In this document: positions 3,084 to 50,303 of the stretch, piece by piece
Position numbering within the stretch: position 1 is the first letter of the stretch
How the letters are laid out: each line of letters starts with the position of its first letter
Source: Chloropicon primus
Lineage: Eukaryota
Assembly: GCA_023205875.1 (NCBI GenBank)
Contig: CP060758.1
Coordinates: forward strand, 248,001-312,000
Reading direction: 5' to 3'
DNA length: 64,000 nt
Program-made: the position numbers and the translations under genes
The notes under the pieces: generated by a model
Seen by the model: the letters and a program-made list of their open reading frames with translations, nothing else
What the model was told of the DNA's origin: nothing
The model's database searches: none

Positions 3084-4433
3084 ATGGATCAAGAAGGGGA
3101 CGAGGGCATGAAGGGGGCAGGCCAAGCGACGGAGGTGGACTTCTTGCGTTACGAGTTCACGGACTATCACGGAATCTCACGATCAAAGGTGGTGCCAACC
3201 CGGAGGAGCGAGGGGAGGATACGCAGCGAGAAGCTCTTTGTCTATGGCGGTGTGCTTGGGATGACCACCACGAGCGAACCGGTCATGTTGGACGACCTTC
3301 TCGTGGACGGGTGCTGTCGTAACGTGAGGCTCTTGCCACAATGGGAAACGTTCCGAGTGCTTCCCCCGAATGGCAAGTACAAGACGGGGAGGGTTTTGTG
3401 CGAGTTGGGGGACCTTGCCGGCGACGGCTTCCTCAACGCGTACCCCCGAACGATGTGCAGGAGGCTCTTGGGCGAGCTGGAGGACATGGGCTACTCGATC
3501 AAGGGGGCCTTTGAGTACGAGTTCACGCTTGGCAAGATGGAGAATGGCGCCTTCACTCCCTTCTTCAACGACAGGCCCACCTTCTCGACCACGGTTTTCG
3601 CGCACTGTGAGGAGCTCCTTTATGACCTCGACCGGGAGCTTCAAGTGATGGGAATCGAAACGAACACGTTCAATTTAGAGTATGGCAAGGGACAAATCGA
3701 GATCACAATCAAGCCGGTCTTTGGCATTGAGATTGCCGACCAAGCCTTCACCTTTCGAACCACCGTGAAGGAGTTTTTCGCACGGAAAGGCTTGCTCGCC
3801 ACCTTCGTGTGCAGGCCGCTCAAGGATACCAAAGGGGCATCCAACGGAGGCCACTTCAATCATTCCCTGTGGGCGAAGAGCTCCGACTCTCGTAGCGCTT
3901 TCTTCAACGACGGGGAGCTGTCGGTGGTGGCCCACAGGTGGATCTCGGGAATCTTAAAGCATTCCAAGGGGCTTGAAGCCCTGTTTGCGCCGACGCTCTC
4001 CTGTTATAACAGAGTGAAACCCTGGTCATGGGCTCCCGTGAATGCAAGCTGGGGGGGAGAGAACAGGACCGCCGCCGTGCGGACCAAGGTGGACGGGGAG
4101 GACGGGACTTATCTCGAGTGCAGAGCGCCCTCCGCTTCAGCCTCGCCTTATCTGGTTTTGGCCGGAGTGCTGGCCGCTGGTATCAATGGCCTAAGGACGA
4201 CTGGCCCGGTTGAACTCCCACCAGAATCGCAAGCGAGCGCGTATGAAGACGAAACGCTCAAGCTCCCGACCAGTCTAGGCGAAAGCTTGCAAGCCTTGGA
4301 AGAGGATGCGGATTTAGTCCGGTCACTGGGTCCGCGCTTTGTCAAGTGGTTCAAGACCGTCAAGGAACACAAGCTCAGCAAAGATAATGTCGATGAGAAG
4401 CACGTTGACTTGGATGATCTCTCTCTGTTGTGA
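3084..4433 (+). CDS. Glutamine synthetase type I-like / lengsin-like protein
   Basis: Motifs FTDYHGISRSK, FEYEF, EYGKGQIE, NGGHFNHSLW, WGGENRTAAVR, YLECRAP, SPYLVLAG. ATG chosen at 3084 (MDQEG); start uncertain. Confidence 0.85.
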   Translation: MDQEGDEGMKGAGQATEVDFLRYEFTDYHGISRSKVVPTRRSEGRIRSEKLFVYGGVLGMTTTSEPVMLDDLLVDGCCRNVRLLPQWETFRVLPPNGKYKTGRVLCELGDLAGDGFLNAYPRTMCRRLLGELEDMGYSIKGAFEYEFTLGKMENGAFTPFFNDRPTFSTTVFAHCEELLYDLDRELQVMGIETNTFNLEYGKGQIEITIKPVFGIEIADQAFTFRTTVKEFFARKGLLATFVCRPLKDTKGASNGGHFNHSLWAKSSDSRSAFFNDGELSVVAHRWISGILKHSKGLEALFAPTLSCYNRVKPWSWAPVNASWGGENRTAAVRTKVDGEDGTYLECRAPSASASPYLVLAGVLAAGINGLRTTGPVELPPESQASAYEDETLKLPTSLGESLQALEEDADLVRSLGPRFVKWFKTVKEHKLSKDNVDEKHVDLDDLSLL

Positions 4434-15308: not shown

Positions 15309-15659
15309 ACTTGCACCTTGCCTCGGTAAAACACGTTTCGAAGGAAGCTTGTCACCTCCTCACCTCTCGACCAATGCCTCAAAATCCTCCACAAAGGTAT
15401 CAAACGAAAGATCACGAGATGTAGCTTTGTCCTAAACCTTTTCCTCTCCCTTTCCTTGCGCCCCTCCTCTCCAAATGGTTCCTGTTCTCTCGCCGCTCTC
15501 CAAAGGTCCCTCCCAAAGGTCCCAGCTGCTCCTTGTTATGGTGTTCAGACATCAGATCAAAACACAGCACACAGAAAAGTCACGAAAGGACGGTAGGGAA
15601 ATCACAGTCAATACTGGAAGCACAAAGGCAAGTTCTCCTTTCCACTGAAAGAGAGAAAC

Positions 15660-15836
15660 ACGGAGAGGCCGGCCACAACTTACCTGTTAGTTTTCTGCAA
15701 AGGTCGTTTCACCGAGTTTGTAAGTTTCTCGGCAGGGTAATTCAGCCCTACCACGACCATTCCACCGTACATGAACGAATACTTCCGCCCACGCACGGCA
15801 GCCCGTACTAACAAACGTATGTGCAACCCTGAGGAG
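15660..15836 (-). ncRNA. Predicted Fanzor omega-RNA (scaffold ~15684-15836, guide ~15660-15683)
   Basis: Directly 3' of the nuclease stop. Complementary pairs seen: 15822-15826/15695-15699, 15753-15758/15702-15707, 15746-15752/15731-15737, 15728-15732/15712-15716 (overlaps the previous stem), and pseudoknot-type 15807-15813/15685-15691. Position matches known TnpB/Fanzor loci. Confidence 0.65.
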
Positions 15837-18100
15837 TTACACACTTTTTGGTTGACGCAAGTGCTTCAGGAGGACGTTGCGTGCCCCGTTCACATCCCGA
15901 CCGCACTTGAAGCCACACTTCTGGCACTTGTACACCTCTGCTCCACCCAGGTTCTTCTTGATGTGTCCGCACCTGCCACAGGTCTTGGAGGTGTACTCCT
16001 CCGTCACGATCGCCAGCTCACTGCCGTGCAAGAGCACCTTGGAAGCCAAGAACGTTCTGAACGCATAGTGCCTCAACGTCAAGAGCGTGCGAGCCGTCTT
16101 CTTCCTGATCACTCGGCGTCTCCCGTTGTTGTTCTTCTTCGCCATGTCTTGGGACTTGAACTCCGGGAGGAGGATTGTGTCGAACCTCCTGCATAGATCG
16201 TTGGCTACCTTTTTGTGAAGCTCGTTCGTCAGACCTCGAAGTTTCTCCATGCAGGCGTATTGCTGTCTCTTCAAGTCGCGGCGGTCGAGGTAAGGGAGCT
16301 TCACCTTTGGGTCTTTGCGCTCGGAAATGATCTCATCAATCCTCCAGCAGAGGTTGAACAGCCTCGCGAAGCCTCGCTCGCCCGTGGCATACTCCCCGAC
16401 GCCTTCTTGCGGCGAGTACGACGTCTGAAAGGTCCTGACTCCCGGATCCAGGGCGACAACCTTCCGCTTGTTCTCAGGCTTCAGGGGTGGCAGGCGATCC
16501 CATGGCGTCGCGATGGGAATGTGCATGTGGAACTGCCCAAGGCGATTTCTTGTGATCTTCACGGCACCCTCGATCTTGCCCCCGGGGATCTCCTCCGTCA
16601 AGTACAGGGGCCCGCCGGCCATCTTCTCCTTGAACACCTCCAGCTTGGTCCACTTGCGTCGTTTTTTGTGCTTCGTATCATCCTTGTGCCTCGTGTTTGG
16701 CCTTTCGATCGTCTCCACGTTCTTTAACTCTCTTGCATCAATTTCAATAGTCCAAGAGCTTGGTTGCTGACGTTGACGATACTTGAGAACGAAGCGGTGC
16801 CCCTTCTTCTCGCCGCGCTCCTTCATCGCTTCCTGCTTCGCGGTGTTCGAATCCCATGCCTTGATGAGACTTCGCACGGCAGCTTGTCTGATGGCACAGG
16901 GGGTTTCCTTCAGCCAAGGATGCTTCTGATTCACAAAGGCCCCGCTAACGTAGTCCCGGTCCTTGCCCACTTGGATGCGAAAAGCTCTGCCTCCAATTTG
17001 GCTCTCGAGTCTCTTCTCTCTGGCCGCGAAAAGCTCTGCCTCCTGTTTTGTCCATGGCCGTGGAGAGCATTGGATTTCTTTCAGCTCTTTCTCCAGGCCC
17101 TCAAAGACCTCAGGGCGTCGCGGTTTGGCCGTCACAAATCTGTCCAGCAGGACGGTCCAAACCAGCGGAAAACGCTCCTTCTTGACCGCCTCCAAACACT
17201 TGTTGTATGTGAAACGCGCAGCTCCCATCCAGTTGCAAAGTGTTCTCGCCTGCTCAGGGTTCAAGCGCATCCTAAGCTTCCTCGTCCGTATCACCGTTCG
17301 CTCCGACAATAGCTTGGAGGTCTTCAGTTTCTGCTCCCTCTTCCTTTTGGCGGGCGACTGCAATGTCTCCACGGATACCACAGAATCTTCTGGAAGGTTC
17401 AAGCACGACCTCCATCCCGTCTTCGGACACTTTACCTCTTCAAGTTCTCTCTTCATCGATGAGAACCAGGTCTTCTTCACGCTGTCGTCCGCCAAGCCAC
17501 CCGGCTGCTTCCCTGCTTTCTTCCCCCTCTTGTTCTTCTTCTTCTTACCCTTCTTCTTGTTCTTCTTCTTGCCCTTCTTGCGAGGCTTCTTGCGAGGCTT
17601 GCCTGACGAGCTCGAACTCTCACCCGCAGAGGCGTCCGCCTCCGGCTGCTTCCCCTTCCGCTCCCCCCCCCGCTTCTTGCGAGGCGTGCTCGAACCCTCC
17701 TCGAAAGCAGAGGCGGGGTCGTCCAGCGGCTTCTCCTTCCGCTTCCCCCCCCGCTTCTTGCGAGGCGTGCTCGAACCCTCACCCGCAGAGGCGGGGTCGT
17801 CCGCGATAGGAAGCATGCACTTCTCGTAGAGCCACTTCAACGCCTGATTCCAGAACCGACGTAACGGCTCCGTCGTCGGAGACTCCTGCCCCGACTTCGA
17901 AGCGCCCTGAGCATGACTCTCGCCAGAGTGCGACCTCCTTGTGGAACTCGTCGAGCCACTCCCCTGCTTCTCCTTTTTCTTACGGCGCTTCCCTGATCGC
18001 GCCATGACTGTTAGGGTTTCACTCGGCGTCCTCCTCCCTTCCTCTCGCGAGGCTAGATTTTTTACCAGTGCCTTGCCCAGCAAGTGAGAACACGAGCAAA
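15684..18100 (-). mobile_element. Putative non-autonomous IS607-like/Fanzor element (or domesticated remnant); left end not defined
   Basis: Fanzor ORF plus omega-RNA-like right end finishing ...CTAACAG|G; no transposase, TIR or TSD recognised; left boundary is a guess. Confidence 0.4.
15837..18005 (-). CDS. Fanzor (Fanzor2 / IS607-type TnpB-like RNA-guided endonuclease), 722 aa
   Basis: RTRKLRMRLNPEQARTLCNWMGAARFTYN (OrfB HTH); PWLKETPCAIRQ; RuvC-I VVALDPGVRTF; RuvC-II ILLPEFKSQDM; EEYTSKTCGRCG...YKCQKCG zinc finger; RuvC-III RDVNGARNVL; K/R-rich N-terminus; ATG at 18005 (MARSGKRRKKK). Confidence 0.93.
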   Translation of the reverse strand: MARSGKRRKKKEKQGSGSTSSTRRSHSGESHAQGASKSGQESPTTEPLRRFWNQALKWLYEKCMLPIADDPASAGEGSSTPRKKRGGKRKEKPLDDPASAFEEGSSTPRKKRGGERKGKQPEADASAGESSSSSGKPRKKPRKKGKKKNKKKGKKKKNKRGKKAGKQPGGLADDSVKKTWFSSMKRELEEVKCPKTGWRSCLNLPEDSVVSVETLQSPAKRKREQKLKTSKLLSERTVIRTRKLRMRLNPEQARTLCNWMGAARFTYNKCLEAVKKERFPLVWTVLLDRFVTAKPRRPEVFEGLEKELKEIQCSPRPWTKQEAELFAAREKRLESQIGGRAFRIQVGKDRDYVSGAFVNQKHPWLKETPCAIRQAAVRSLIKAWDSNTAKQEAMKERGEKKGHRFVLKYRQRQQPSSWTIEIDARELKNVETIERPNTRHKDDTKHKKRRKWTKLEVFKEKMAGGPLYLTEEIPGGKIEGAVKITRNRLGQFHMHIPIATPWDRLPPLKPENKRKVVALDPGVRTFQTSYSPQEGVGEYATGERGFARLFNLCWRIDEIISERKDPKVKLPYLDRRDLKRQQYACMEKLRGLTNELHKKVANDLCRRFDTILLPEFKSQDMAKKNNNGRRRVIRKKTARTLLTLRHYAFRTFLASKVLLHGSELAIVTEEYTSKTCGRCGHIKKNLGGAEVYKCQKCGFKCGRDVNGARNVLLKHLRQPKSV

Positions 18101-18544
18101 CATTTTGTGGGTTGTCCTTTGGGTGTGACCAAACTGGTATACACTGGAATCCCACCAACAGGGGAAAACCTCCAACACTCCTGTCGGCTGGCGACGGCCG
18201 AGAGAGAGAGAGAGGGAGAGAGGCGACGACTTTGCGATCAGGGGGGCAAGGAAGGCGAGGAGGCGAGGAGGGGAGAAAAACGAGAGAAAGATCTGCTCGA
18301 GATCTTTTCAACGACACCTTACTCGACCCATTTGGTGCTCGGATTGGTCGAGGAATCGGCTCGGAGGACGGAAAGGGAAGGAGAAACCACCCGAGTGACA
18401 CGCCTTGTCGAGGACGGTGGCGGCGAGGACGGCAAGGGGAGGTTAAAGAGGAGGGTGTTGAAAGAAAGTAGACCTCGCGTGCGGGTTGCTTGCCTGGTTT
18501 CGTGGTCGGAGGTGAAGTTCGCCGTCTGTTGCGAAACGATAACG

Positions 18545-25067: not shown

Positions 25068-26321
25068 TCATACATCGAACTTGGGCTTGGCGTACTTTTG
25101 CATCGGGAGCTCCAAACCCTTCGCGCTGAGCAAGGTGCTCAGCTGCTGGATTCCATTGATCTCTCCGTCAACAATTTTTTGACTAAGCTTCTCGATCGAC
25201 TCCCTCAAAGGCTCCAGGGGCCTCTTGTCATGACCGAAGCTAACCAACCACATCGCCAAGAAGTCCGGGTTATTATACATTGTGACCATGCCAATCATGT
25301 GGAGTCTCAAAAGCTCTTGCGCCAGCTTTTCTCCCAGCGTCAGCGAGAGCGCGGGGATGTAGCTGTCGTAAAAGTCGCACCCCGTCGTAAAGGGGAGCTG
25401 GGCGTTCTTTGCAACGCACTTCTTCAACCTCGACCGAGCTTCCGCCAGCACGTTCATCGCTTTTCCAAGGTCGATGTCCAGCAGCCTTGTCTTTGCATCG
25501 GGACTGTACAGGATCTCGTGGACGTCGAGGCACTCCATGTAGAGCTCCTCGTCGCCCTTCTTCGTCAAGTCCTCCTTGAGGGTATCGTTCCTCTTCTTCA
25601 TCTCTTCGCCGAAGAACTCGAGAAGCTGGTTGACGACCGCGAGGAGAAGCTCGAGGGGGTTGGGAGTGAGCTGGGAGGCATCCGCAGCGTCCTGAGCAGT
25701 TGGGATCACGAGGTCCTCGCGGGACGTCTGACCCTGCATCGCTGCGGCGAGGAGAGAGTTGCTCCTGGCCTTCTGGGGCACTTGGAGAATCTTGGCGCGG
25801 CCTTGGGCCCCGTCGGCTGCCTGCGTCTGCTTCTGCTGGCCAGCTTCCCTGTTCAGTTTGGATCCGCCCATGACCTCGTCAACGAGTGCTTGCACATCCT
25901 TCGTGTGCTCAATCTCCTGTATGTGTCTCCCCGCTATCTTGGACGGCCACCTAACGATGCCAACCTCGCGGCACCTCGTCCTCAGAGTCTTGGTGCAGAT
26001 GTTCAACACCTTGGCGGCGTCCGCTTGCTGGAGGTGGAAGGTGGCCGTGATCTCCTTCTTGGTAATCGCGCTCTTCTTCGACTTCCTGATGATCGGTATT
26101 GGGGTCAAGTTGTTGTCGTGGCGCAACTTCTTGACTGTGGTACGGCTCACGCCCAGGACAGCGGCAGCGGCCCTCAAGCTCAAGTGAGACACCTTGTCCA
26201 AGCTCTCCCTCGTGACGTGCACCCTTGGACGGCGTCGCCTCACGGGCGGCCTCTCCGCCGTCACCTCCGCGAAGGGATGACTCTCCTCCTGCCTCGCCTC
26301 CTCCTGACTACTCGCCATCAT
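25068..26321 (-). CDS. RWP-RK family transcription factor-like protein
   Basis: ITKKEITATFHLQQADAAKVLNICTKTLRTRCREVGIVRWPSK, preceded by a second degenerate copy (HLSLRAAAAVLGVSRTTVKKL). Confidence 0.8.
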   Translation of the reverse strand: MMASSQEEARQEESHPFAEVTAERPPVRRRRPRVHVTRESLDKVSHLSLRAAAAVLGVSRTTVKKLRHDNNLTPIPIIRKSKKSAITKKEITATFHLQQADAAKVLNICTKTLRTRCREVGIVRWPSKIAGRHIQEIEHTKDVQALVDEVMGGSKLNREAGQQKQTQAADGAQGRAKILQVPQKARSNSLLAAAMQGQTSREDLVIPTAQDAADASQLTPNPLELLLAVVNQLLEFFGEEMKKRNDTLKEDLTKKGDEELYMECLDVHEILYSPDAKTRLLDIDLGKAMNVLAEARSRLKKCVAKNAQLPFTTGCDFYDSYIPALSLTLGEKLAQELLRLHMIGMVTMYNNPDFLAMWLVSFGHDKRPLEPLRESIEKLSQKIVDGEINGIQQLSTLLSAKGLELPMQKYAKPKFDV

Positions 26322-26835
26322 CAACGAACGCTATAGACGACCCTAGATGGACGGCGTCGCCACCTTCCCTTCTCTTGTGCTCTCAACTCAGAGCTTGTAG
26401 AGGCGTGTGACCTTCCACTATATAATCCCGGACCTCTCCGGTGTTTTCTTCTTCTTCTTCTTGGAACCCAAGCTGAGGTGCTGGTGGTTGTGTGGCTTGC
26501 TGCTGAAAGCAAAAGCAAATCCCTTTCCTTTGCAATACCGCAGCGAGGCGGCTTCTCTCGTCTTTGTCGTGGGTCAACCCCTTGGGACAACACAAAGGTT
26601 CTTGTTGTCTTGTTTGTGTGTGTGTGTTCCGACAAGCGGAGAGGATTGTGATGGATGGATGACAAAGCGGTTGTGACTGGTTCGGTCAAGACCAAGCCTT
26701 GCCGTGTCGTGTCCAGTCGAGTTTGTGTTCCTCCTCCTGTCCGCTTCCACTTGACACGTATCTGCTTCGTCAGGAATTGCTCTAATTCAATTATTCTCAA
26801 TTATGCTCACAGAGAGAGACAGACAGAGACAGAGA

Positions 26836-39522: not shown

Positions 39523-39950
39523 CCTTACCTCTTCCTCGTCAGAGATCCATTCCTTTCATGCGACCACCCAATCGAAAGAGAAAGACACGAGGATTCCATC
39601 CATCGAGTCTTTTACCCCCTCAACCACCCGTCCTCGCCGTCACAAGGCGCTCAACTGCAGCGCTTCCCCCTGCGGCGTGGAGCGCTCAGGTGGTGATTTT
39701 GATTGCACTCAAAATGAACTGATTGCACTCGAAATGAACTGAACCCTTTTGAATTGGCGCGAGACAGAGAGGACAGAGGAAGGGCCAAGTGGGTGAGAGA
39801 AGTCCCTTGTGCGGAGGCAAGATGGAGACAAGATGGAGGAAAGGTGGGATCTTTGGAGGGATCAGGGCTCAAGGCATGTTTGATTTCAAGTAGAGCCCTT
39901 GGTGGGCTCTTTTGTGTCCATCGGAAGCCCCTTTTTTTGTGGAGGGACAG

Positions 39951-42900
39951 ATGGCTGAGGAGGGCTGGCTCCCGAGGGAGGGAGACGTGGTGGTGCTTTG
40001 GTTGGAGAGTGAGCAGGTGGGTGTGACGGTAACGGTGGAGGAGGGCCAAGAGAAGGTTCTTCTGAAGCAATGGCGTGACATATCGGAGCTCTGCGCGGAC
40101 CCAGGGGCGCCCTTCTTCGCTTTCAAGAAGCAAGACTATGTCGGTTTCAAGTCATGTAAGACTGGAAAGTTCTTGCAGGCGAGAAGGAAGCATCCCCACA
40201 AGCTGGCAACGTACTCGAACTTCTGGGGAGTGTGGGAGCAGTTTCGGATCAAGAAGTGCTCGAGGGTCGTCTCAAGCAGGGTCAGAGGCTGGAAGAGCTC
40301 CATCCTGCTCCTTCAGCCAAGGCAACTACCCAACGCTGTCCTGTCCCTGGGTTGCTACTTTTTGACGACGAGCATGGCTCCCACCCGAGCAGCTCCGAGG
40401 TCGATCGCTGCAGGGGAGGGAATACCGGTAAAAAAAGTCGAAGCTTTGAACATATCGATGAAGCTGGTGCACAGCTTTGCGAGGAAGTGCTCCAGTAGGT
40501 TCCTGCGGAGTGCGCTGACGAGTTGGAGGGACGCGGCCACCAGGAGGAGGTTGCTGCACTCCATCTGCTCGAACATGCGGAAGCACCTTTGCAGGAGGCT
40601 TTTGATGTCCGTCCTCAAGCGATGGCGCCACAGAATTGTGAGGAAGAAGCGTCAAGATGTATTTGTAGAAAGAATGCGAGCGAAGAAGCAGAAGAAGGAC
40701 GGCAACGCTTGCTTTTCTTGGTGGCGGGAATACTCGGCCTCTAAAAGGATGAAGGGCATCCATGTTAGAAAGTTGAAGGAAATGCAAAAGAGGAGAAGAA
40801 CACGCCGGCTGCTGAAAGAATGGAAAGCGTACTCGCACGAGAACAAAAGCTGTGCAGCAAAGCAGAAAAATTCTCTGACAAAGTTCGAAGCGAACAGAAA
40901 ACGGAGAATCATTCGTGCATGGTTCTCGAGTCTGCAGCAGCACAAAGAGCAAGAGAAACACGTCCATCGAAGCATCCGAGTTCGACAAAACAGCGAACTG
41001 CGCAACATCATTTACAAGTGGAGCATCTTGACGGAACGAGAGAAATACACTAGTACTTGCAATGCGCTGGTTACAAGGATGATGAACAGGTTGTACTTGC
41101 ACCGCGTCTTTGACCACTGGTCGTATCTCGTGCAAGAGTGTGTCCAAGTGCGGCATAAGGTGCAGACATGCATTGTCAGGCTGAGCATAAGACACATGAC
41201 CGATGCGTTTGAGGCTTGGCTTTCATACACATCAGATCAGAGAGCGAGGATGCATCTGCTGAATGTGGTCACCCAACGAATGCAGAGGTTGCGTCTTACT
41301 CATTGCTTTGGCACCTGGTGGTCCAATGTGGGTTACTTGGGACAAGTACAACGTAAGCTTCAGCGATGCGTGATGCAGCTGGCCCATCGCAAACTTGTTC
41401 ACGTTTTTGAGACCTGGTTGACTTACGTGGACCAGCAACGTGCCTTGGCTTGCGCACGGGCGAAGGCCAACAGAATGGGCGACGCGAGGAGACAAGACGC
41501 GATGTACGCAAGTCTGATGATTTGGGCAGAGCGTGCCCATGCTTGGAAGATGAAGAGGTACAGGATGAAGAGGGCGGTGATGCACATGAATCGCTTGTGC
41601 CTGCACCGGACGTTTGGCAAGTGGCTGAATTACGTTCGCCGCATTTTGGTAGAGCACATGGTGCTTCACAAGGTGATGCTGCGTATGCAGAGGCTTCGCC
41701 TGAGCCATTGTTTTGGCACGTGGTTGTCCAATGTGGGTTACTTGGGACAGGTGCGGCGAAAGCTGCAGAGACGTGTGACACAGATTGCTTACCAGAAGAT
41801 TGCAGGTGCCTTTGAGGCATGGTTGACTTACGTGGACCAGCAACGTGCCTTGGCTTGCGCACGGGCGAAGGCCAACAGAATGGGTGACGCGAGGAGACAA
41901 GACGCGATGTACGCAAGTCTGATGATTTGGGCCGACCGTGCCCATGCTTGGAAGATGAAGAGGTACAGGATGAAGAGGGCGGTGATGCACATGAATCGGC
42001 TGTGCCTGCACCGCGTCTTCGACCACTGGTCGTATCTCGTGCAAGAGTGTGTCCAAGTGCGGCATAAGGTGCAGACATGCATTGTCAGGCTGAGCATAAG
42101 ACACATGACCGATGCGTTTGAGGCTTGGCTTTCATACACATCAGATCAGAGAGCGAGGATGCATCTGCTGAATGTGGTCACCCAACGAATGCAGAGGTTG
42201 CGTCTTACTCATTGCTTTGGCACCTGGTGGTCCAATGTGGGTTACTTGGGACAAGTACAACGTAAGCTTCAGCGATGCGTGATGCAGCTGGCCCATCGCA
42301 AACTTGTTCACGTTTTTGAGACCTGGTTGACTTACGTGGACCAGCAACGTGCCTTGGCTTGCGCACGGGCGAAGGCCAACAGAATGGGCGACGCGAGGAG
42401 ACAAGACGCGATGTACGCAAGTCTGATGATTTGGGCAGAGCGTGCCCATGCTTGGAAGATGAAGAGGTACAGGATGAAGAGGGCGGTGATGCACATGAAT
42501 CGCTTGTGCCTGCACCGGACGTTTGGCAAGTGGCTGAATTACGTTCGCCGCATTTTGGTAGAGCACATGGTGCTTCACAAGGTGATGCTGCGTATGCAGA
42601 GGCTTCGCCTGAGCCATTGTTTTGGCACGTGGTTGTCCAATGTGGGTTACTTGGGACAGGTGCGGCGAAAGCTGCAGAGACGTGTGACACAGATTGCTTA
42701 CCAGAAGATTGCAGGTGCCTTTGAGGCATGGTTGACTTACGTGGACCAGCAACGTGCCTTGGCTTGCGCACGGGCGAAGGCCAACAGAATGGGTGACGCG
42801 AGGAGACAAGACGCGATGTACGCAAGTCTGATGATTTGGGCCGACCGTGCCCATGCTTGGAAGATGAAGAGGTACAGGATGAAGAGGGCGGTGATGCACA

Positions 42901-45900
42901 TGAATCGGCTGTGCCTGCACCGCGTCTTCGACCACTGGTCGTATCTCGTGCAAGAGTGTGTCCAAGTGCGGCATAAGGTGCAGACATGCATTGTCAGGCT
43001 GAGCATAAGACACATGACCGATGCGTTTGAGGCTTGGCTTTCATACACATCAGATCAGAGAGCGAGGATGCATCTGCTGAATGTGGTCACCCAACGAATG
43101 CAGAGGTTGCGTCTTACTCATTGCTTTGGCACCTGGTGGTCCAATGTAGATTATTTAGGACAAGTACAACGTAAGCTTCAGCGATGCGTGATGCAGCTGG
43201 CCCATCGCAAACTTGTTCACGTTTTTGAGACCTGGTTGACTTACGTGGACCAGCAACGTGCCTTGGCTTGCGCACGGGCGAAGGCCAACAGAATGGGCGA
43301 CGCGAGGAGACAAGACGCGATGTACGCAAGTCTGATGATTTGGGCAGAGCGTGCCCATGCTTGGAAGATGAAGAGGTACAGGATGAAGAGGGCGGTGATG
43401 CACATGAATCGCTTGTGCCTGCACCGGACGTTTGGCAAGTGGCTGAATTACGTTCGCCGCATTTTGGTAGAGCACATGGTGCTTCACAAGGTGATGCTGC
43501 GTATGCAGAGGCTTCGCCTGAGCCATTGTTTTGGCACGTGGTTGTCCAATGTGGGTTACTTGGGACAGGTGCGGCGAAAGCTGCAGAGACGTGTGACACA
43601 GATTGCTTACCAGAAGATTGCAGGTGCCTTTGAGGCATGGTTGACTTACGTGGACCAGCAACGTGCCTTGGCTTGCGCACGGGCGAAGGCCAACAGAATG
43701 GGTGACGCGAGGAGACAAGACGCGATGTACGCAAGTCTGATGATTTGGGCCGACCGTGCCCATGCTTGGAAGATGAAGAGGTACAGGATGAAGAGGGCGG
43801 TGATGCACATCCACCGGCTGTACTTGCATCAGTCTTTCGGCAAGTGGTCGAATTACGTCCAGAACATCTTGGTTGAGCGCATGGTGATGCACAAGGTTAT
43901 ACTGCGGATGCAGAGGCTCCACATGAGTCAGTGCTTTGAGACTTGGTGGTCGAATGTTGATTACTTGGGTCAAGTGAGGCGGAAGCTTCAGCGATGTTTT
44001 GATCATCGACGTCATCGTAATCTCTTTCACGCCTTTGAGACATGGTTGTCTTACGTGGATGAGCAGCATGCCTTGGCGAACGCTCGATCCAAGGCGAACA
44101 GGATTGCTGATGTGCGGAGACAAGACGCGATGTACGCAAGTCTGATGGCTTGGGCAGAGCGTGCCCATGCTTGGAAGATGAAGAGGTACAGGATGAAGAG
44201 GGCGGTGATGCATATCCACCGGCTGTACTTGCATCAGTCTTTCGGCAAGTGGTCGAATTACGTCCAGAACATCTTGGTTGAGCGCATGGTGATGCACAAG
44301 GTTATACTGCGGATGCAGAGGCTCCACATGAGTCAGTGCTTTGAGACTTGGTGGTCGAATGTTGATTACTTGGGTCAAGTGAGGCGGAAGCTTCAGCGAT
44401 GCGTGATGCACATGTCCTATCGTAATCTCGTTCACGCCTTTGAGACATGGTTGTCTTACGTGGACGAGCAGCATGCCTTGGCGATCGCTCGATCCAAGGC
44501 GAACAGGATTGCTGATGTGCGGAGACAAGACGCGATGTACGCAAGTCTGATGATTTGGGCAGAGCGTGCCCATGCTTGGAAGATGAAGAGGTACAGGATG
44601 AAGAGGGCGGTGATGCATATCCACCGGCTGTACTTGCATCAGTCTTTCGGCAAGTGGTCGAATTACGTCCAGAACATCTTGGTTGAGCGCATGGTGATGC
44701 ACAAGGTTATACTGCGGATGCAGAGGCTCCACATGAGTCAGTGCTTTGAGACTTGGTGGTCGAATGTTGATTACTTGGGTCAAGTGAGGCGGAAGCTTCA
44801 GCGATGTTTTGATCATCGACGTCATCGTAATCTCGTTCACGCCTTTGAGACATGGTTGTCTTACGTGGATGAGCAGCATGCCTTGGCGAACGCTCGATCC
44901 AAGGCGAACAGGATTGCTGATGTGCGGAGACAAGACGCGATGTACGCAAGTCTGATGGCTTGGGCAGAGCGTGCCCATGCTTGGAAGATGAAGAGGTACA
45001 GGATGAAGAGGGCGGTGATGCACATCCACCGGCTGTACTTGCATCAGTCTTTCGGCAAGTGGTCGAATTACGTCCAGAACATCTTGGTTGAGCGCATGGT
45101 GATGCACAAGGTTATACTGCGGATGCAGAGGCTCCACATGAGTCAGTGCTTTGAGACTTGGTGGTCGAATGTTGATTACTTGGGTCAAGTGAGGCGGAAG
45201 CTTCAGCGATGTTTTGATCATCGACGTCATCGTAATCTCGTTCACGCCTTTGAGACATGGTTGTCTTACGTGGATGAGCAGCATGCCTTGGCGAACGCTC
45301 GATCCAAGGCGAACAGGATTGCTGATGTGCGGAGACAAGACGCGATGTACGCAAGTCTGATGGCTTGGGCAGAGCGTGCCCATGCTTGGAAGATGAAGAG
45401 GTACAGGATGAAGAGGGCGGTGATGCATATCCACCGGCTGTACTTGCATCAGTCTTTCGGCAAGTGGTCGAATTACGTCCAGAACATCTTGGTTGAGCGC
45501 ATGGTGATGCACAAGGTTATACTGCGGATGCAGAGGCTCCACATGAGTCAGTGCTTTGAGACTTGGTGGTCGAATGTTGATTACTTGGGTCAAGTGAGGC
45601 GGAAGCTTCAGCGATGCGTGATGCACATGTCCTATCGTAATCTCTTTCACGCCTTTGAGACATGGTTGTCTTACGTGGACGAGCAGCATGCCTTGGCGAT
45701 CGCTCGATCCAAGGCGAACAGGATTGCTGATGTGCGGAGACAAGACGCGATGTACGCAAGTCTGATGATTTGGGCAGAGCGTGCCCATGCTTGGAAGATG
45801 AAGAGGTACAGGATGAAGAGGGCGGTGATGCACATCCACCGGCTGTACTTGCATCAGTCTTTCGGCAAGTGGTCGAATTACGTCCAGAACATCTTGGTTG

Positions 45901-48900
45901 AGCGCATGGTGATGCACAAGGTTATACTGCGGATGCAGAGGCTCCACATGAGTCAGTGCTTTGAGACTTGGTGGTCGAATGTTGATTACTTGGGTCAAGT
46001 GAGGCGGACGCTTCAGCGATGTTTTGATCATCGACGTCATCGTAATCTCTTTCACGCCTTTGAGACATGGTTGTCTTACGTGGACGAGCAGCATGCCTTG
46101 GCGAACGCTCGATCCAAGGCGAACAGGATTGCTGATGTGCGGAGACAAGACGCGATGTACGCAAGTCTGATGATTTGGGCAGAGCGTGCCCATGCTTGGA
46201 AGATGAAGAGGTACAGGATGAAGAGGGCGGTGATGCACATCCACCGGCTGTACTTGCATCAGTCTTTCGGCAAGTGGTCGAATTACGTCCAGAACATCTT
46301 GGTTGAGCGCATGGTGATGCACAAGGTTATACTGCGGATGCAGAGGCTCCACATGAGTCAGTGCTTTGAGACTTGGTGGTCGAATGTTGATTACTTGGGT
46401 CAAGTGAGGCGGAAGCTTCAGCGATGTTTTGATCATCGACGTCATCGTAATCTCGTTCACGCCTTTGAGACATGGTTGTCTTACGTGGATGAGCAGCATG
46501 CCTTGGCGAACGCTCGATCCAAGGCGAACAGGATTGCTGATGTGCGGAGACAAGACGCGATGTACGCAAGTCTGATGATTTGGGCAGAGCGTGCCCATGC
46601 TTGGAAGATGAAGAGGTACAGGATGAAGAGGGCGGTGATGCATATCCACCGGCTGTACTTGCATCAGTCTTTCGGCAAGTGGTCGAATTACGTCCAGAAC
46701 ATCTTGGTTGAGCGCATGGTGATGCACAAGGTTATACTGCGGATGCAGAGGCTCCACATGAGTCAGTGCTTTGAGACTTGGTGGTCGAATGTTGATTACT
46801 TGGGTCAAGTGAGGCGGAAGCTTCAGCGATGCGTGATGCACATGTCCTATCGTAATCTCTTTCACGCCTTTGAGACATGGTTGTCTTACATGGATGAGCA
46901 GCGTGCCTTGGCGAACGCTCGATCCAAGGCGAACAGGATTGCTGATGTGCGGAGACAAGACGCGATGTACGCAAGTCTGATGGCTTGGGCAGAGCGTGCC
47001 CATGCTTGGAAGATGAAGAGGTACAGGATGAAGAGGGCGGTGATGCACATCCACCGGCTGTACTTGCATCAATCTTTCGGCAAGTGGTTGAATTACGTCC
47101 AGAACATCTTGGTTGAGCGCATGGTGATGCACAAGGTTATACTGCGGATGCAGAGGCTCCACATGAGTCAGTGCTTTGAGACTTGGTGGTCGAATGTTGA
47201 TCATCTGAGGCAGATGCGATGGAAAGTACAGCGATTTGTTCTTCGGTGGTCGTTGTTCTGCATGAGCTACTACTTTTGGGAATGGCAAGATTGGGTAGAA
47301 ATAAAGATGAGGAAGAAGAAGAGGTTGGAGAGGGCGTTGCTGAGTATTGAAGGGTTGAAGTTGTATCACTCGTTTGGCAAGTGGCTGAGTTATGTACACA
47401 ATCACTTGAAGAAGAAGATGCTGCTGCAGAAGATTGTTTTTAGAATGCAAAAGGTCCACGTTGCCCAAGGGTTCTACACTTGGAGGTCAAACATCCACTA
47501 TTTGCATATGATTCAGATCAGATTGCAAAGGGCTTTAACACATATCGCCTATCGCACTTTTAGAGCAGTGTTCGATGGATGGGCATCAAGAATTCTTTTG
47601 TGGCAATCGAAGAGGTACAGGGTGAGAAGAGCGGTGATGCACATTCACCGGCTGTACTTGCATCAGTCTTTCGGCAAGTGGTCGAATTACGTCCAGAACA
47701 TCTTGGTTGAGCGCATGGTGATGCACAAGGTTATACTGCGGATGCAGAGGCTCCACATGAGTCAGTGCTTTGAGACTTGGTGGTCGAATGTTGATTACTT
47801 GGGTCAAGTGAGGCGGAAGCTTCAGCGATGCGTGATGCACATGTCCTATCGTAATCTCGTTCACGCCTTTGAGACATGGTTGTCTTACGTGGACGAGCAG
47901 CATGCCTTGGCGAACGCTCGATCCAAGGCGAACAGGATTGCTGATGTGCGGAGACAAGACGCGATGTACGCAAGTCTGATGGCTTGGGCAGAGCGTGCCC
48001 ATGCTTGGAAGATGAAGAGGTACAGGATGAAGAGGGCGGTGATGCATATCCACCGGCTGTACTTGCATCAGTCTTTCGGCAAATGGCTTGGGTACGTTGG
48101 AATGGTTTCAAAGGAGAAGACTCTCCTTCACAAGGTTATACTGCGGATGCAGAGGCTGCACCTTTGTCAATGCTTTGAGACTTGGTGGTCGAATGTTGAT
48201 TACTTGGGTCAAGTGAGGCGGAAGCTGGAGCGGTGCCTGATCAGGTACACTCACCGCAGTCTCGTGCTTGCTTTTGGTTCTTGGTTGCGCTGGACGAATA
48301 TCTCAAAGGCAACAAATTGTCGATTGAAGCAAGCAGTTAGAAAGATCGAGAGGCTGAGCATGTGCCATTCTTTCCAAATGTGGCTCTCAGCTGTCGACGA
48401 AAGCTCACATGACCGTCAGCTTCTGTTGAAGGTCATTACGCGCATGCAGAGGCTCCACATGAGTCAGTGCTTTGAGACTTGGTGGTCGAATGTTGATTAC
48501 TTGGGTCAAGTGAGGCGAAAAGTACAGCGATGCGTGATGCAGATGTCCCACCACAACGTTGTTTATGCCTTTGAGACATGGATGTCTTACGTGGACGAGC
48601 AGCGTGCCTTGGTGGCCGCGAATGTGCTTGCAGAGAGTCACTTTAGGAAGTTCACAACTTCCTCTACTTTCTTGAAGTGGTGGAAGCTTGTTAGGTTCGG
48701 GAAAGCAGTGAATCTATCGCACTTGAAGACAAAGTACGACGGCGTTTTGCTATACTCTGCCTTTAGTGGCTGGTTTTTGCTGTGCAGAAAATCTGTGGGA
48801 GACAAGAACGTGGCCAAAAGATACTTATCTGTTGGTGTCTCAAGAGTAAGACTCGCTTCTTTCAAGCGATGGGTGGGCTACGTCAACTTCAAAAGAAGGG

Positions 48901-50303
48901 AGGCCACACTGAGTACCATGTTATTCTCACGCTACCAGATGCTTTTGGGTAGGAAGGGGTTCCGAGCGTGGCGCAACCACATGCTGCTGTTGAATGAAAG
49001 GCGTGGCAAGGTTCGTCATTTCATTGTGGGCTGGCAAAGTCTGAACCTGAAAAGGTGCTTCCGGTCATGGAAAATTTGTGTCGATCAGGAGCAGATGATT
49101 GCAGCACTGGACGCTCTGGTGCTGAGCGGTGCTTTTGAAAAATGGAGAATGAAAGTAGCGAATTCAAGGATTCGCTACTCTGCCATCGACAACGTGTTCT
49201 GCATGAAAAAAGCGAGCCTGGCTCATTGCTTCAGGAGCTGGGCTGCTCATGTCAGGAAGGAGAAACTTGTCCTCCAAAAGTTCGCCCTAGTTGGGAAGAC
49301 GACGATGAAAGCCTCCTTCATGAAGCACTGGAGGCAGTACACCGGGTACAAAAAGAGCAAGCGCAGCTTGAGCGAGAAGCTCATTCTCCACTACAGGTTC
49401 AGGGTGGCAACAAAGTTCTTCAAGGCCTGGGCACGACACACTGCCCTGCGAGCTGAGAGGCTGCGGATGGTGAAGACGTTCATTGGCAGGTGGCTCGGGA
49501 TGAGTTTGCAGAAGCACTTCAGTTGCTGGGCAGTCAAGGTAGCCAGGAAGAAGTATATATTGAAGCAAATCTCAATTTCCGGGAGCGAGCACGACAAAAG
49601 GATACAGCTTGGAGTCTTCCGCTACTGGAAGCAATGTACGGACCAGATCAAAAAGCACAGAAGCAAGGCCGAGGAATACATCGTTCGTAACGGCCACTCA
49701 CGCAAGAGGAAATTGCTGCACAAGCAGTTCTGTCACTGGAGGTCTTTGAAATCCATGCGACAGGACATGGAAAGGGTGCTGCAGGACCGACGTGCTTTCA
49801 TAGCGATCTCGAGAGCGTTCAAGCACTGGAGAAGCGTGCATGCTCAGAAGGTCAAGTTGTCACAAATGATGAGACAAGAGCACGACGTGAAAGTGAGGGG
49901 CAATGTATTCAATTCCTGGCACAAAACCACACTGCAGAAGATCGCCTTCAGAAAGTACAGGCAAAAGCAGAAGTGGTTCCTCCGATGGAAGTTTGAGGCC
50001 ACGCTGAAAGAGAGCTTCTACGAGGAGAACGTCGTCTTGGAGCAGGCGAATCTTGGTTTGGATGACAGCGCTGGCAATGCGTTCTACCCTGACGTTCTGA
50101 GAAGTTCCTACACCAAAGCGATCGAAGACGTGGGCCTGCTCGAGGCCAAAATTGCGTCTTTCTCAGACGAAAGACAATCTTTCATGGCCAGCCCTCCGAA
50201 GTTCGAGGACTCTTTGCTGGACGACACAGAAGCGATCCTCAACGAGTTGGACAGCCAAAGCTCAAAGATAAGGAGGCGGCTGGCGGAAATGAAAACACCT
50301 TAG
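39951..50303 (+). CDS. Giant Sfi1-like (centrin-binding) repeat protein, ~3450 aa
   Basis: Uninterrupted ORF with dozens of ~33-aa units ending L..xF..W; small N-terminal globular region (GKFLQARRK...WEQF); ATG at 39951. Confidence 0.75.
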   Translation: MAEEGWLPREGDVVVLWLESEQVGVTVTVEEGQEKVLLKQWRDISELCADPGAPFFAFKKQDYVGFKSCKTGKFLQARRKHPHKLATYSNFWGVWEQFRIKKCSRVVSSRVRGWKSSILLLQPRQLPNAVLSLGCYFLTTSMAPTRAAPRSIAAGEGIPVKKVEALNISMKLVHSFARKCSSRFLRSALTSWRDAATRRRLLHSICSNMRKHLCRRLLMSVLKRWRHRIVRKKRQDVFVERMRAKKQKKDGNACFSWWREYSASKRMKGIHVRKLKEMQKRRRTRRLLKEWKAYSHENKSCAAKQKNSLTKFEANRKRRIIRAWFSSLQQHKEQEKHVHRSIRVRQNSELRNIIYKWSILTEREKYTSTCNALVTRMMNRLYLHRVFDHWSYLVQECVQVRHKVQTCIVRLSIRHMTDAFEAWLSYTSDQRARMHLLNVVTQRMQRLRLTHCFGTWWSNVGYLGQVQRKLQRCVMQLAHRKLVHVFETWLTYVDQQRALACARAKANRMGDARRQDAMYASLMIWAERAHAWKMKRYRMKRAVMHMNRLCLHRTFGKWLNYVRRILVEHMVLHKVMLRMQRLRLSHCFGTWLSNVGYLGQVRRKLQRRVTQIAYQKIAGAFEAWLTYVDQQRALACARAKANRMGDARRQDAMYASLMIWADRAHAWKMKRYRMKRAVMHMNRLCLHRVFDHWSYLVQECVQVRHKVQTCIVRLSIRHMTDAFEAWLSYTSDQRARMHLLNVVTQRMQRLRLTHCFGTWWSNVGYLGQVQRKLQRCVMQLAHRKLVHVFETWLTYVDQQRALACARAKANRMGDARRQDAMYASLMIWAERAHAWKMKRYRMKRAVMHMNRLCLHRTFGKWLNYVRRILVEHMVLHKVMLRMQRLRLSHCFGTWLSNVGYLGQVRRKLQRRVTQIAYQKIAGAFEAWLTYVDQQRALACARAKANRMGDARRQDAMYASLMIWADRAHAWKMKRYRMKRAVMHMNRLCLHRVFDHWSYLVQECVQVRHKVQTCIVRLSIRHMTDAFEAWLSYTSDQRARMHLLNVVTQRMQRLRLTHCFGTWWSNVDYLGQVQRKLQRCVMQLAHRKLVHVFETWLTYVDQQRALACARAKANRMGDARRQDAMYASLMIWAERAHAWKMKRYRMKRAVMHMNRLCLHRTFGKWLNYVRRILVEHMVLHKVMLRMQRLRLSHCFGTWLSNVGYLGQVRRKLQRRVTQIAYQKIAGAFEAWLTYVDQQRALACARAKANRMGDARRQDAMYASLMIWADRAHAWKMKRYRMKRAVMHIHRLYLHQSFGKWSNYVQNILVERMVMHKVILRMQRLHMSQCFETWWSNVDYLGQVRRKLQRCFDHRRHRNLFHAFETWLSYVDEQHALANARSKANRIADVRRQDAMYASLMAWAERAHAWKMKRYRMKRAVMHIHRLYLHQSFGKWSNYVQNILVERMVMHKVILRMQRLHMSQCFETWWSNVDYLGQVRRKLQRCVMHMSYRNLVHAFETWLSYVDEQHALAIARSKANRIADVRRQDAMYASLMIWAERAHAWKMKRYRMKRAVMHIHRLYLHQSFGKWSNYVQNILVERMVMHKVILRMQRLHMSQCFETWWSNVDYLGQVRRKLQRCFDHRRHRNLVHAFETWLSYVDEQHALANARSKANRIADVRRQDAMYASLMAWAERAHAWKMKRYRMKRAVMHIHRLYLHQSFGKWSNYVQNILVERMVMHKVILRMQRLHMSQCFETWWSNVDYLGQVRRKLQRCFDHRRHRNLVHAFETWLSYVDEQHALANARSKANRIADVRRQDAMYASLMAWAERAHAWKMKRYRMKRAVMHIHRLYLHQSFGKWSNYVQNILVERMVMHKVILRMQRLHMSQCFETWWSNVDYLGQVRRKLQRCVMHMSYRNLFHAFETWLSYVDEQHALAIARSKANRIADVRRQDAMYASLMIWAERAHAWKMKRYRMKRAVMHIHRLYLHQSFGKWSNYVQNILVERMVMHKVILRMQRLHMSQCFETWWSNVDYLGQVRRTLQRCFDHRRHRNLFHAFETWLSYVDEQHALANARSKANRIADVRRQDAMYASLMIWAERAHAWKMKRYRMKRAVMHIHRLYLHQSFGKWSNYVQNILVERMVMHKVILRMQRLHMSQCFETWWSNVDYLGQVRRKLQRCFDHRRHRNLVHAFETWLSYVDEQHALANARSKANRIADVRRQDAMYASLMIWAERAHAWKMKRYRMKRAVMHIHRLYLHQSFGKWSNYVQNILVERMVMHKVILRMQRLHMSQCFETWWSNVDYLGQVRRKLQRCVMHMSYRNLFHAFETWLSYMDEQRALANARSKANRIADVRRQDAMYASLMAWAERAHAWKMKRYRMKRAVMHIHRLYLHQSFGKWLNYVQNILVERMVMHKVILRMQRLHMSQCFETWWSNVDHLRQMRWKVQRFVLRWSLFCMSYYFWEWQDWVEIKMRKKKRLERALLSIEGLKLYHSFGKWLSYVHNHLKKKMLLQKIVFRMQKVHVAQGFYTWRSNIHYLHMIQIRLQRALTHIAYRTFRAVFDGWASRILLWQSKRYRVRRAVMHIHRLYLHQSFGKWSNYVQNILVERMVMHKVILRMQRLHMSQCFETWWSNVDYLGQVRRKLQRCVMHMSYRNLVHAFETWLSYVDEQHALANARSKANRIADVRRQDAMYASLMAWAERAHAWKMKRYRMKRAVMHIHRLYLHQSFGKWLGYVGMVSKEKTLLHKVILRMQRLHLCQCFETWWSNVDYLGQVRRKLERCLIRYTHRSLVLAFGSWLRWTNISKATNCRLKQAVRKIERLSMCHSFQMWLSAVDESSHDRQLLLKVITRMQRLHMSQCFETWWSNVDYLGQVRRKVQRCVMQMSHHNVVYAFETWMSYVDEQRALVAANVLAESHFRKFTTSSTFLKWWKLVRFGKAVNLSHLKTKYDGVLLYSAFSGWFLLCRKSVGDKNVAKRYLSVGVSRVRLASFKRWVGYVNFKRREATLSTMLFSRYQMLLGRKGFRAWRNHMLLLNERRGKVRHFIVGWQSLNLKRCFRSWKICVDQEQMIAALDALVLSGAFEKWRMKVANSRIRYSAIDNVFCMKKASLAHCFRSWAAHVRKEKLVLQKFALVGKTTMKASFMKHWRQYTGYKKSKRSLSEKLILHYRFRVATKFFKAWARHTALRAERLRMVKTFIGRWLGMSLQKHFSCWAVKVARKKYILKQISISGSEHDKRIQLGVFRYWKQCTDQIKKHRSKAEEYIVRNGHSRKRKLLHKQFCHWRSLKSMRQDMERVLQDRRAFIAISRAFKHWRSVHAQKVKLSQMMRQEHDVKVRGNVFNSWHKTTLQKIAFRKYRQKQKWFLRWKFEATLKESFYEENVVLEQANLGLDDSAGNAFYPDVLRSSYTKAIEDVGLLEAKIASFSDERQSFMASPPKFEDSLLDDTEAILNELDSQSSKIRRRLAEMKTP
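41098..43810. repeat. Coding tandem repeat, 909-bp unit x3
   Basis: Identical shadow ORFs at 909-bp spacing (41423/42332/43241; 41450/42359/43268). Confidence 0.92.
43810..48230. repeat. Coding tandem repeat, 405-bp unit x~8, plus a further copy after a unique spacer
   Basis: Shadow ORFs at 43897, 44302, 44707, 45112, 45517, 45922, 46327, 46732, then 47731. Confidence 0.92.

Follow-up and report, generated by a model that had tools for sequence, protein, structure and literature searches.

A recently mobile, non-autonomous Fanzor2* element with defined ends, a corrected catalytic glutamate and two candidate guide boundaries in the alga Chloropicon primus

In this study, we analysed a 64,000-nt stretch of contig CP060758.1 of the green alga Chloropicon primus (assembly GCA_023205875.1, positions 248,001 to 312,000), hereafter the window, which carries an open reading frame (ORF) for a nuclease of the Fanzor2 type. 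The results established that the ORF belongs to a multi-copy element with defined ends, a 5-bp target-site duplication (TSD) and heterozygous insertions, that the encoded protein has an intact RuvC triad and a Fanzor2 fold, and that the copies recombine. The family itself is already known: a 2019 paper gave its gene count, and its description as Fanzor2* followed in 2023. We propose, with moderate confidence, that the element is mobilised in trans, makes an omega-RNA with a guide from the host flank, and homes by cleaving empty alleles.

The ORF translates without internal stop or intron into 722 aa, as an initial annotation of the window had stated. Its OrfB helix-turn-helix (HTH) domain (HTH_OrfB_IS605, aa 239-276, Pfam E 2.8e-7) and its CxxC...CxxC finger (C676/679/694/697, within a Cas12f1-like TNB zinc-finger domain at aa 646-711, Pfam E 9e-18) were likewise recovered. 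The annotation had named D520 (DPG), E615 (LPEF) and D704 (RDVNG) as the catalytic triad, and all three residues sit exactly at the coordinates it gave. We aligned the protein with 204 distinct homologues, comprising 9 proteins and 195 ORFs; of 233 loci, the 215 with an ORF covering the RuvC motifs were the source of the latter. Aspartate was found at the positions of D520 and of D704 in 204/204 homologues each, whereas E615 was a glutamate in only 15/204. The canonical RuvC-II position is P614, a proline in 201/204 homologues, and an inert canonical site of this kind was described by Jiang et al. (PMC10530073). Glutamate was instead found at E669 in 204/204 homologues, a count to be read with the retrieval of the loci, which used patterns holding DPG and, for the viral set alone, also the E669 motif. 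Because E669 is invariant and aligns with E467 of ApmFz2, the catalytic glutamate of that enzyme (PMC11832414), we assigned E669 and not E615 to the active site. The alignment thus gives D520/E669/D704 as the triad; both aspartates of the annotation were retained and its glutamate was replaced. The zinc-finger cysteines were missing in ~88/204 relatives (valine at C676 in 78), with the RuvC triad invariant.

Fanzors are defined by DPG together with a glutamate six residues before the finger (Yoon et al., PMC10711439), and the window protein carries the Fanzor2 fingerprint of D520-P-G, E669 at that spacing and a P or G at the canonical RuvC-II position, which here is P614. An AlphaFold model of aa 176-722 (pLDDT 87.2, pTM 0.83) had ApmFz2 (PDB 9b0l) as its best Foldseek match (E 2e-18), and the Fanzor1 SpuFz1 structures matched more weakly (E 8e-7 to 3e-6). 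VIA-align tied ApmFz2 (Z 22.7, rmsd 3.9, 401 aligned) with ISDra2 TnpB (Z 23.3, rmsd 3.4, 336 aligned), and among its top five rows only ApmFz2 covered the N-terminal 60 residues. The architecture, a compact TnpB-like fold with the OrfB HTH and an N-terminal extension, is unlike Fanzor1, and the protein scored under all three NCBIfam TnpB cut-offs. These results bear out the Fanzor2 identity proposed in the annotation, indicating that the ORF encodes an intact Fanzor2, likely an RNA-guided DNA-cutting enzyme. In the literature on Fanzor with Chloropicon, including the text of Yoon et al., no assay of a C. primus Fanzor2 was found.

The element begins with TGTTGG at 18177 and finishes with ATAACA at 15534, with a perfect 5-bp TSD and a degenerate terminal inverted repeat (TIR) in which 7/12 outermost nucleotides match. 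The two flanking intervals contained just one TGTT...AACA pair accompanied by an exact 5-nt duplication, where 0.016 were expected, for a pattern picked after the published insertion alleles had been seen. Supplementary Data 8 of the C. primus genome paper (PMC6731263), a table of 225 rows covered in its first fifth and by motif searches (first 400 characters per cell), contains three heterozygous insertions of the element (2,664, 2,664 and 2,707 bp). The left end is visible in one of these alleles and the right end in two; by eye, they match the window from 18177 and up to 15534 and diverge outside. Because the alleles share the same end bases, we set the boundaries of the 2,644-bp element at these positions, and the heterozygous insertions indicate that it was recently mobile. 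The initial annotation had seen no TIR or TSD, which the TGTT...AACA ends and the AGGAG on both sides contradict. The known insertion flanks differ, with AGGAG twice, a flank ending in GGTG, and ACAGA.

Other end candidates were rejected. A first pair at 18199/15668 with TSD CTCTC was a chance match, equalled in 183/400 shuffles and at odds with the ends in the published alleles; a similar guess for the relative L001 was scored as well by 88/400 shuffles, and a 3-nt TTT candidate at 18130/15505 was dropped on the same chance grounds. No second element end was found elsewhere in the window and no TGT...ACA/TSD ends in L001, L002, L003, L005 or L007, some of whose contigs are too short, while viral contigs scanned for DNA motifs yielded only two unrelated matches of 17-19 nt. 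Two other heterozygous insertions in the genome paper, at Chromosome_1:974796 and Chromosome_3:74671 (2,531 and 1,534 bp), have different starts and are possible mobile elements.

TGT termini with 4-5-bp TSDs mark Ginger/TDD elements and long terminal repeat (LTR) integrases (PMC2836005). The TG...CA ends and 5-bp TSD of the window element therefore suggest an integrase-type mobilising partner, a class that we infer from the ends alone, since Ginger TIRs are much longer: the element shares the TGT termini and 4-5-bp TSD of Ginger2/TDD but not their TIRs of ~50-180 bp.

Protein clusters and the supplements of papers supplied our data on copy number, flanks and expression. The best four of 13 protein matches were records named 'putative IS605 transposase [Chloropicon primus]' with 90-99% identity, and P0001 fell in a 46-member protein cluster (40 read, 39 named), in which the 15 members listed lie on contigs of many different sizes. 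The 2019 genome paper counts 25 genes for 'putative IS605 transposases' (PMC6731263 Suppl. Data 6) with RNA-seq depths of 0.7-88; two of them have other best matches and low depth, and may be degenerate. Yoon et al. (2023, PMC10711439) subsequently assigned the C. primus Fanzor2s to elements of the cut-and-paste kind that have degenerate TIRs and TSDs. According to the preprint (10.1101/2023.08.09.552727), the element is non-autonomous, its 5-nt TSD varies greatly and an autonomous partner was not identified. The window element shows the same features, namely a degenerate TIR, a 5-nt TSD, the Fanzor as sole gene and multiple copies, and it almost certainly belongs to this family. Since QDZ21152.1 (P0017) is identical to the window protein across a 472-residue core and lies four accession numbers away from the record of the neighbour ALG11, the window insertion is probably this already annotated locus. 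What had been taken for a stand-alone gene is thus one copy of a ~25-member family with element ends. Nor is it a new ortholog, as had been suggested: the paralogues UPR03652.1, UPR02811.1 and UPR04245.1, which differ at 13-18 of ~472 core residues (96-98% identical), are in the curated Fanzor table of Yoon et al. The triad and the four cysteines were retained in 21/21 copies examined. A metagenome scan with the single Fanzor2 protein found no relative. Among public gene models P0029, P0030, P0003 and P0028, the Fanzor is fused to neighbouring host ORFs (a SET-domain gene and another tail); P0030 is the same SET gene minus the Fanzor, which hints at annotation artefacts or at an insertion in one assembly only.

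We then compared the copies at the protein level. After four gene models with internal deletions and two duplicates were dropped, 15 distinct copies remained, whose amino-acid divergence was 1-5% or less; some gene models of the family are truncated or deleted. With 27 informative sites, 178/351 site pairs failed the four-gamete test, against means of 10% and 18% incompatible pairs in two clonal simulation models, and 0/200 simulations reached the observed value under either. Mean r2 was 0.74 within 5 residues and ~0.1 past 15, and short-range linkage was raised (permutation p 0.0002 for pairs within 10 residues), but incompatibility showed no overall rise with distance (p 0.84). Identical haplotypes recurred under different accession series or records (P0001/P0017 and P0005/P0020), which argues against assembly chimeras. 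These protein-level results are evidence of frequent recombination among the copies and imply no particular cause. We found no literature on recombination or mosaicism among Fanzor copies.

To the 3' side of the ORF, the stretch of 168 nt between the stop codon and 15681 folded far better than shuffles (z -4.61), whereas the next 154 nt toward the element end were not unusually structured (z +0.57). In the predicted omega-RNA core, one hairpin spans the stop codon and another, small one has an 8-nt loop (15814-15807) predicted to pair with 15691-15684; long hairpins are also present. We examined the four closest relatives having a visible 3' region (L001, L002, L004 and L005); in 5/5 sequences, including the window, the top partner of the loop lies just before a conserved GT, with bases changed and pairing kept. 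The partner resembles the ISXfa1 scaffold end GAACGG, and the predicted pseudoknot fits that of TnpB and Fanzor2 RNAs. No Rfam family matched in the window. Because the pseudoknot and the IS607 end lie ~150 nt inside the right end, the guide would start either in the host flank or within the element; TIR and TSD were predicted inside Fanzor2* scaffolds by Yoon et al. (PMC10711439). Directly after the predicted pseudoknot lies a stretch of 39 nt (15683-15645, minus strand) resembling a short spliceosomal intron, with a GTAAGT start, a pyrimidine tract and a CAG end; its length differs from allele to allele, and a comparable GT...AG stretch occupies this place in L001. The 7-mer CTAACAG occurs at 18014-18008 and 15690-15684 (minus strand), where the first site just precedes the start codon and the second coincides with the ancestral IS607 end; the pair perhaps marks capture junctions, and one other allele differs at the first site.

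To place the protein among its relatives, we ran a quick IQ-TREE search on 81 rows cut from the 204 homologues by identity, midpoint-rooted and composed without Fanzor1 or canonical TnpB outgroups. The protein fell in an 8-row clade (SH-aLRT 100) nested in a larger one of 13 rows (98) made up of metagenomic sequences; all 9 prokaryote rows lay elsewhere. The branch from the protein to its nearest relatives was long (0.35 changes per site). The sister rows L004, L005 and L007 carry a resolvase-type TnpA, intact or at least intact as far as the contig extends; elsewhere in the clade, tnpA is interrupted in L002, halved in L001 and lost in L003. Intact tnpA lies directly upstream at 76/195 loci. 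Such IS607-type relatives with TnpA, together with the eukaryotic context, fit a Fanzor2, a protein of eukaryotes or their viruses that descends from an IS607 pro-Fanzor/TnpB, while the window element itself departs from IS607 in having stops in its relic tnpA frame and a TSD. In the close relative L003, the stop codon is followed at once by a long inverted repeat whose upstream counterpart is a block duplicated in tandem (750-1420 and 3300-3400). No omega-RNA is visible there, and L003 may be another, independent capture or a copy that was rearranged.

The N-terminal extension appears to have arisen over tnpA. The +1 frame was stop-free in 69/74 distinct TnpA catalytic domains, with 5.3 expected after synonymous shuffling, and the +2 frame in 0/74; the 74 domains are related, so that these counts are not independent. 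The +1 frame continues into the Fanzor ORF and contains the motifs P[FY]W and SW[FY], whose offsets are constant; an ATG lies upstream in 62 of the 64 rows having both motifs (of 73). Because this stop-free frame carries the motifs and runs into the Fanzor ORF, we infer that the FW/LP/WFS motifs of the window protein (FWN, LP, WFS) descend from a frame overprinted on tnpA. A hidden Markov model (HMM) of the +1-frame peptides matched the window N-terminus weakly (E 0.0056; best of 500 shuffles 0.8), and a TnpA HMM missed the relic tnpA frame, its best match in the window (E 2.8) lying at another place; it is by homology in the Fanzor frame that the relic is recognised. WFS is likely the counterpart of the RuvC-R motif N82-S83-W84 of ApmFz2. 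We found nothing specific in the literature on overprinting of the Fanzor frame on tnpA: in the extracts covered, PMC9956272 mentions partial overlap only and PMC3627910 none. The 81-nt repeat that interrupts the segment varies in copy number among paralogues (more in P0018, fewer in P0023), and the indel table of the genome paper (PMC6731263) includes a heterozygous 79-nt deletion of one unit.

On these grounds, we propose the following mechanism. An IS607 element would have lost tnpA and become captured inside a TG...CA carrier. The resulting non-autonomous 2.64-kb transposon is likely moved in trans by a transposase of the integrase type, to judge by its ends. An omega-RNA would be produced from the predicted scaffold, with the guide read from the host flank past TIR and TSD. 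Fanzor2 would then likely cut empty alleles, and homologous repair in the diploid alga would copy the element back. Empty-site cleavage is an established TnpB role, as summarised by Yoon et al. (PMC10711439), and mosaic copies fit frequent homologous repair between copies. The annotation had offered an active non-autonomous element as one possibility; non-autonomous mobility is confirmed and nuclease function stays putative.

Several observations weigh against this mechanism. The best pseudoknot partner (score 17, -8.4 kcal/mol) lies 149 nt inside the element end, and the runner-up, at the terminus and reaching into the first TSD base(s) (15540-15533), is weaker (score 13, -5.1 kcal/mol); in an alternative loop register three sites tie. 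Since the guide directly follows the scaffold end in ISXfa1 and ApmFz2 (for ApmFz2, PMC11832414), these systems argue against a host-flank guide, and the differing insertion flanks mean that a fixed target-adjacent motif (TAM) may be lacking at some sites. Mosaicism is possible without a nuclease, an intact triad is expected in a young family even without selection, and the RNA-seq depths refer to near-identical copies and may be multi-mapped. No transposase family matched any of the 26 further window ORFs scanned (24/36 long high-GC3 frames, by GC at third codon positions, and 2 short ORFs), as the annotation had already noted from view, and the text of Yoon et al. reports no autonomous partner. 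Finally, small-RNA expression and cleavage are themselves predictions.

The internal pseudoknot partner bears most directly on a second reading, which we consider possible but unlikely. Here the scaffold would still end at 15683, and every copy would take a near-identical guide from the right arm of the element, aimed at carrier elements or sister copies with right-arm sequence and not at host empty sites. The structured region does end at 15683, the best partner is internal and like the ISXfa1 scaffold end, and it is intact in both other alleles with a visible right end. Strongly mosaic copies and the missing autonomous partner are also consistent with a hard-wired guide by which ~25 copies would home into and replace Fanzor-less carriers, perhaps including the autonomous partner, and so drive the mosaics; this extension we advance only tentatively. 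Set against it, such a guide would match the right arm of its own element perfectly, so that a TAM excluding self is required; the first 15 nt past the pseudoknot differ between alleles (although the long-read consensus is noisy); for Fanzor2* scaffolds, Yoon et al. predict that TIR and TSD are included; and a Fanzor-less carrier was found neither in the window nor in the part of the indel table covered.

The same 149-nt gap between pseudoknot and element end could also mean that capture by the carrier parted the scaffold from the flank and left the nuclease useless in vivo, a passenger kept intact by youth and gene conversion. The low divergence of the copies and the truncated or deleted gene models agree with this, but the Fanzor frame and its motifs have outlasted the decay of the tnpA frame that they overlap, and triad, finger and RNA pairing have been kept along a long branch. 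We therefore regard a mere passenger as improbable. Still less credit can be given to the idea that the 2.64-kb unit is a solo LTR carrying a Fanzor, with mosaics made by reverse-transcriptase template switching. TG...CA ends with a 5-bp TSD are LTR hallmarks too, and linkage between variable sites decays within ~5 codons; yet all three published heterozygous insertions are of unit length, no gag-pol lies nearby among the scanned window ORFs, and no autonomous partner appears in the text of Yoon et al.

Domestication as a single-copy host nuclease, which the annotation had entertained, is highly implausible: housekeeping neighbours, the host-like GC3 of the ORF (0.73, against 0.74-0.83) and the probable identity with the annotated QDZ21152.1 would suit it, but ~25 copies, intact ends with a TSD and heterozygous insertions do not, and transposase families are among the species-specific orthogroups of a Chloropicon comparison (PMC12301720). 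Finally, a bacterial TnpB on a contaminant or chimeric contig, named beforehand as a refutation, can be dismissed: prokaryotic pro-Fanzor relatives exist (28-43% identity in the best segment), but the protein groups with marine metagenomic relatives and scores under the TnpB cut-offs, its neighbours are eukaryotic, and the 46-member cluster, the insertion alleles and the ALG11 neighbour, which clusters with named C. primus records, all support the algal nuclear origin that had been assumed.

Table 1. Coordinates in the window of the Fanzor2* element and its parts.
Feature	Position	Strand	Basis
Whole non-autonomous Fanzor2* element, 2,644 bp, TGTT...AACA termini	15534..18177	-	End scan; three published insertion alleles
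Left TSD copy AGGAG; predicted TAM side of the empty site under a host-flank guide	18178..18182	-	
Right TSD copy AGGAG	15529..15533	-	
Fanzor2 ORF, 722 aa, no intron	15837..18005	-	Translation, Pfam, alignment, Foldseek
N-terminal FW...LP...WFS segment, putatively from the +1 frame over ancestral IS607 tnpA; also interrupted by a Lys-rich tract like a nuclear localisation signal (putative role)	17466..17855	-	Motif offsets, HMM
81-nt tandem repeat interrupting the N-terminal segment	17626-17780	-	
RuvC-I D520 (DPG)	16446..16448	-	Aligns with ApmFz2 D324
Rearranged RuvC-II glutamate E669 (Ealt), six residues ahead of zinc finger	15999..16001	-	Aligns with ApmFz2 E467
RuvC-III D704	15894..15896	-	Homologue alignment; equals ApmFz2 D501
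Predicted omega-RNA core, hairpins and pseudoknot, end resembling IS607 scaffold end	15683..15848	-	Folding, relatives
Right arm, 149 nt, added past the ancestral IS607 end	15534..15682	-	Folding; common to two insertion alleles
Host flank; predicted guide if the scaffold extends through TIR and TSD	15509..15528	-	Suggested by Yoon et al. (text)

The element is present once in the window, inserted in the divergent interval between an RPA49 gene (Pfam E 5e-38) and a COMM-domain gene. Both neighbours had been named in the annotation; the first is firm and the second weak (E 0.0016, under the Pfam cut-off). Elsewhere in the window, a 3,469-codon open frame at 39894-50300 (plus strand) contains ten 405-nt tandem units (43118-47201) of Trp/Arg/Leu-rich helical repeats, which may resemble Sfi1-type repeats; its Pfam matches are weak and probably spurious. 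A 267-nt unit is repeated 3.8 times at 1245-2271 with 89% identity, and an RWP-RK transcription factor, in which two or more RWP-RK stretches occur, is encoded at 25071-26330 (minus strand).

The genome of C. primus is small and assembled from telomere to telomere, and its heterozygous sites pair filled with empty alleles of a recently mobile Fanzor2, a setting in which the role of a Fanzor in vivo is directly testable. A TAM screen requires the exact ends, the correct catalytic glutamate and the two candidate guide boundaries. An element-internal guide, if true, would represent a distinct lifestyle for an OMEGA nuclease.

Compared with the C. primus Fanzor2* of Yoon et al., the window element is of the same family and differs in nothing essential; the text of that paper is without end sequences, internal pseudoknot, mosaicism or tnpA relic, and its Figs 2A, 4A and S3 may show ends and RNA fold. 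The best sequence and Foldseek match is ApmFz2 (ApmFNuc, mimivirus L79), an IS607-encoded Fanzor2, whose triad D324/E467/D501 corresponds to D520/E669/D704. The two proteins share 18-21% identity and differ in length (520 vs 722 aa), and ApmFz2 belongs to a viral IS607 element with a tnpA partner, whereas the window holds a nuclear TIR/TSD element without transposase. Ginger2/TDD and LTR-integrase elements likewise have TGT termini, and TDD-4 and TDD-5 make 5-bp TSDs (PMC2836005). Ginger TIRs measure 40-270 bp (PMC2836005) against ~12 degenerate nucleotides in the window element, which has no linked integrase gene, and the likeness is one of ends only. The mollusc Fanzor2* (Mercenaria MmeFz2, Mya) are likewise Fanzor2s in non-autonomous TIR elements; they represent an independent capture with a conserved 4-nt TTAN TSD, in contrast to the variable 5-nt TSD of C. 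primus, and MmeFz2 is a proven RNA-guided nuclease (PMC10432273).

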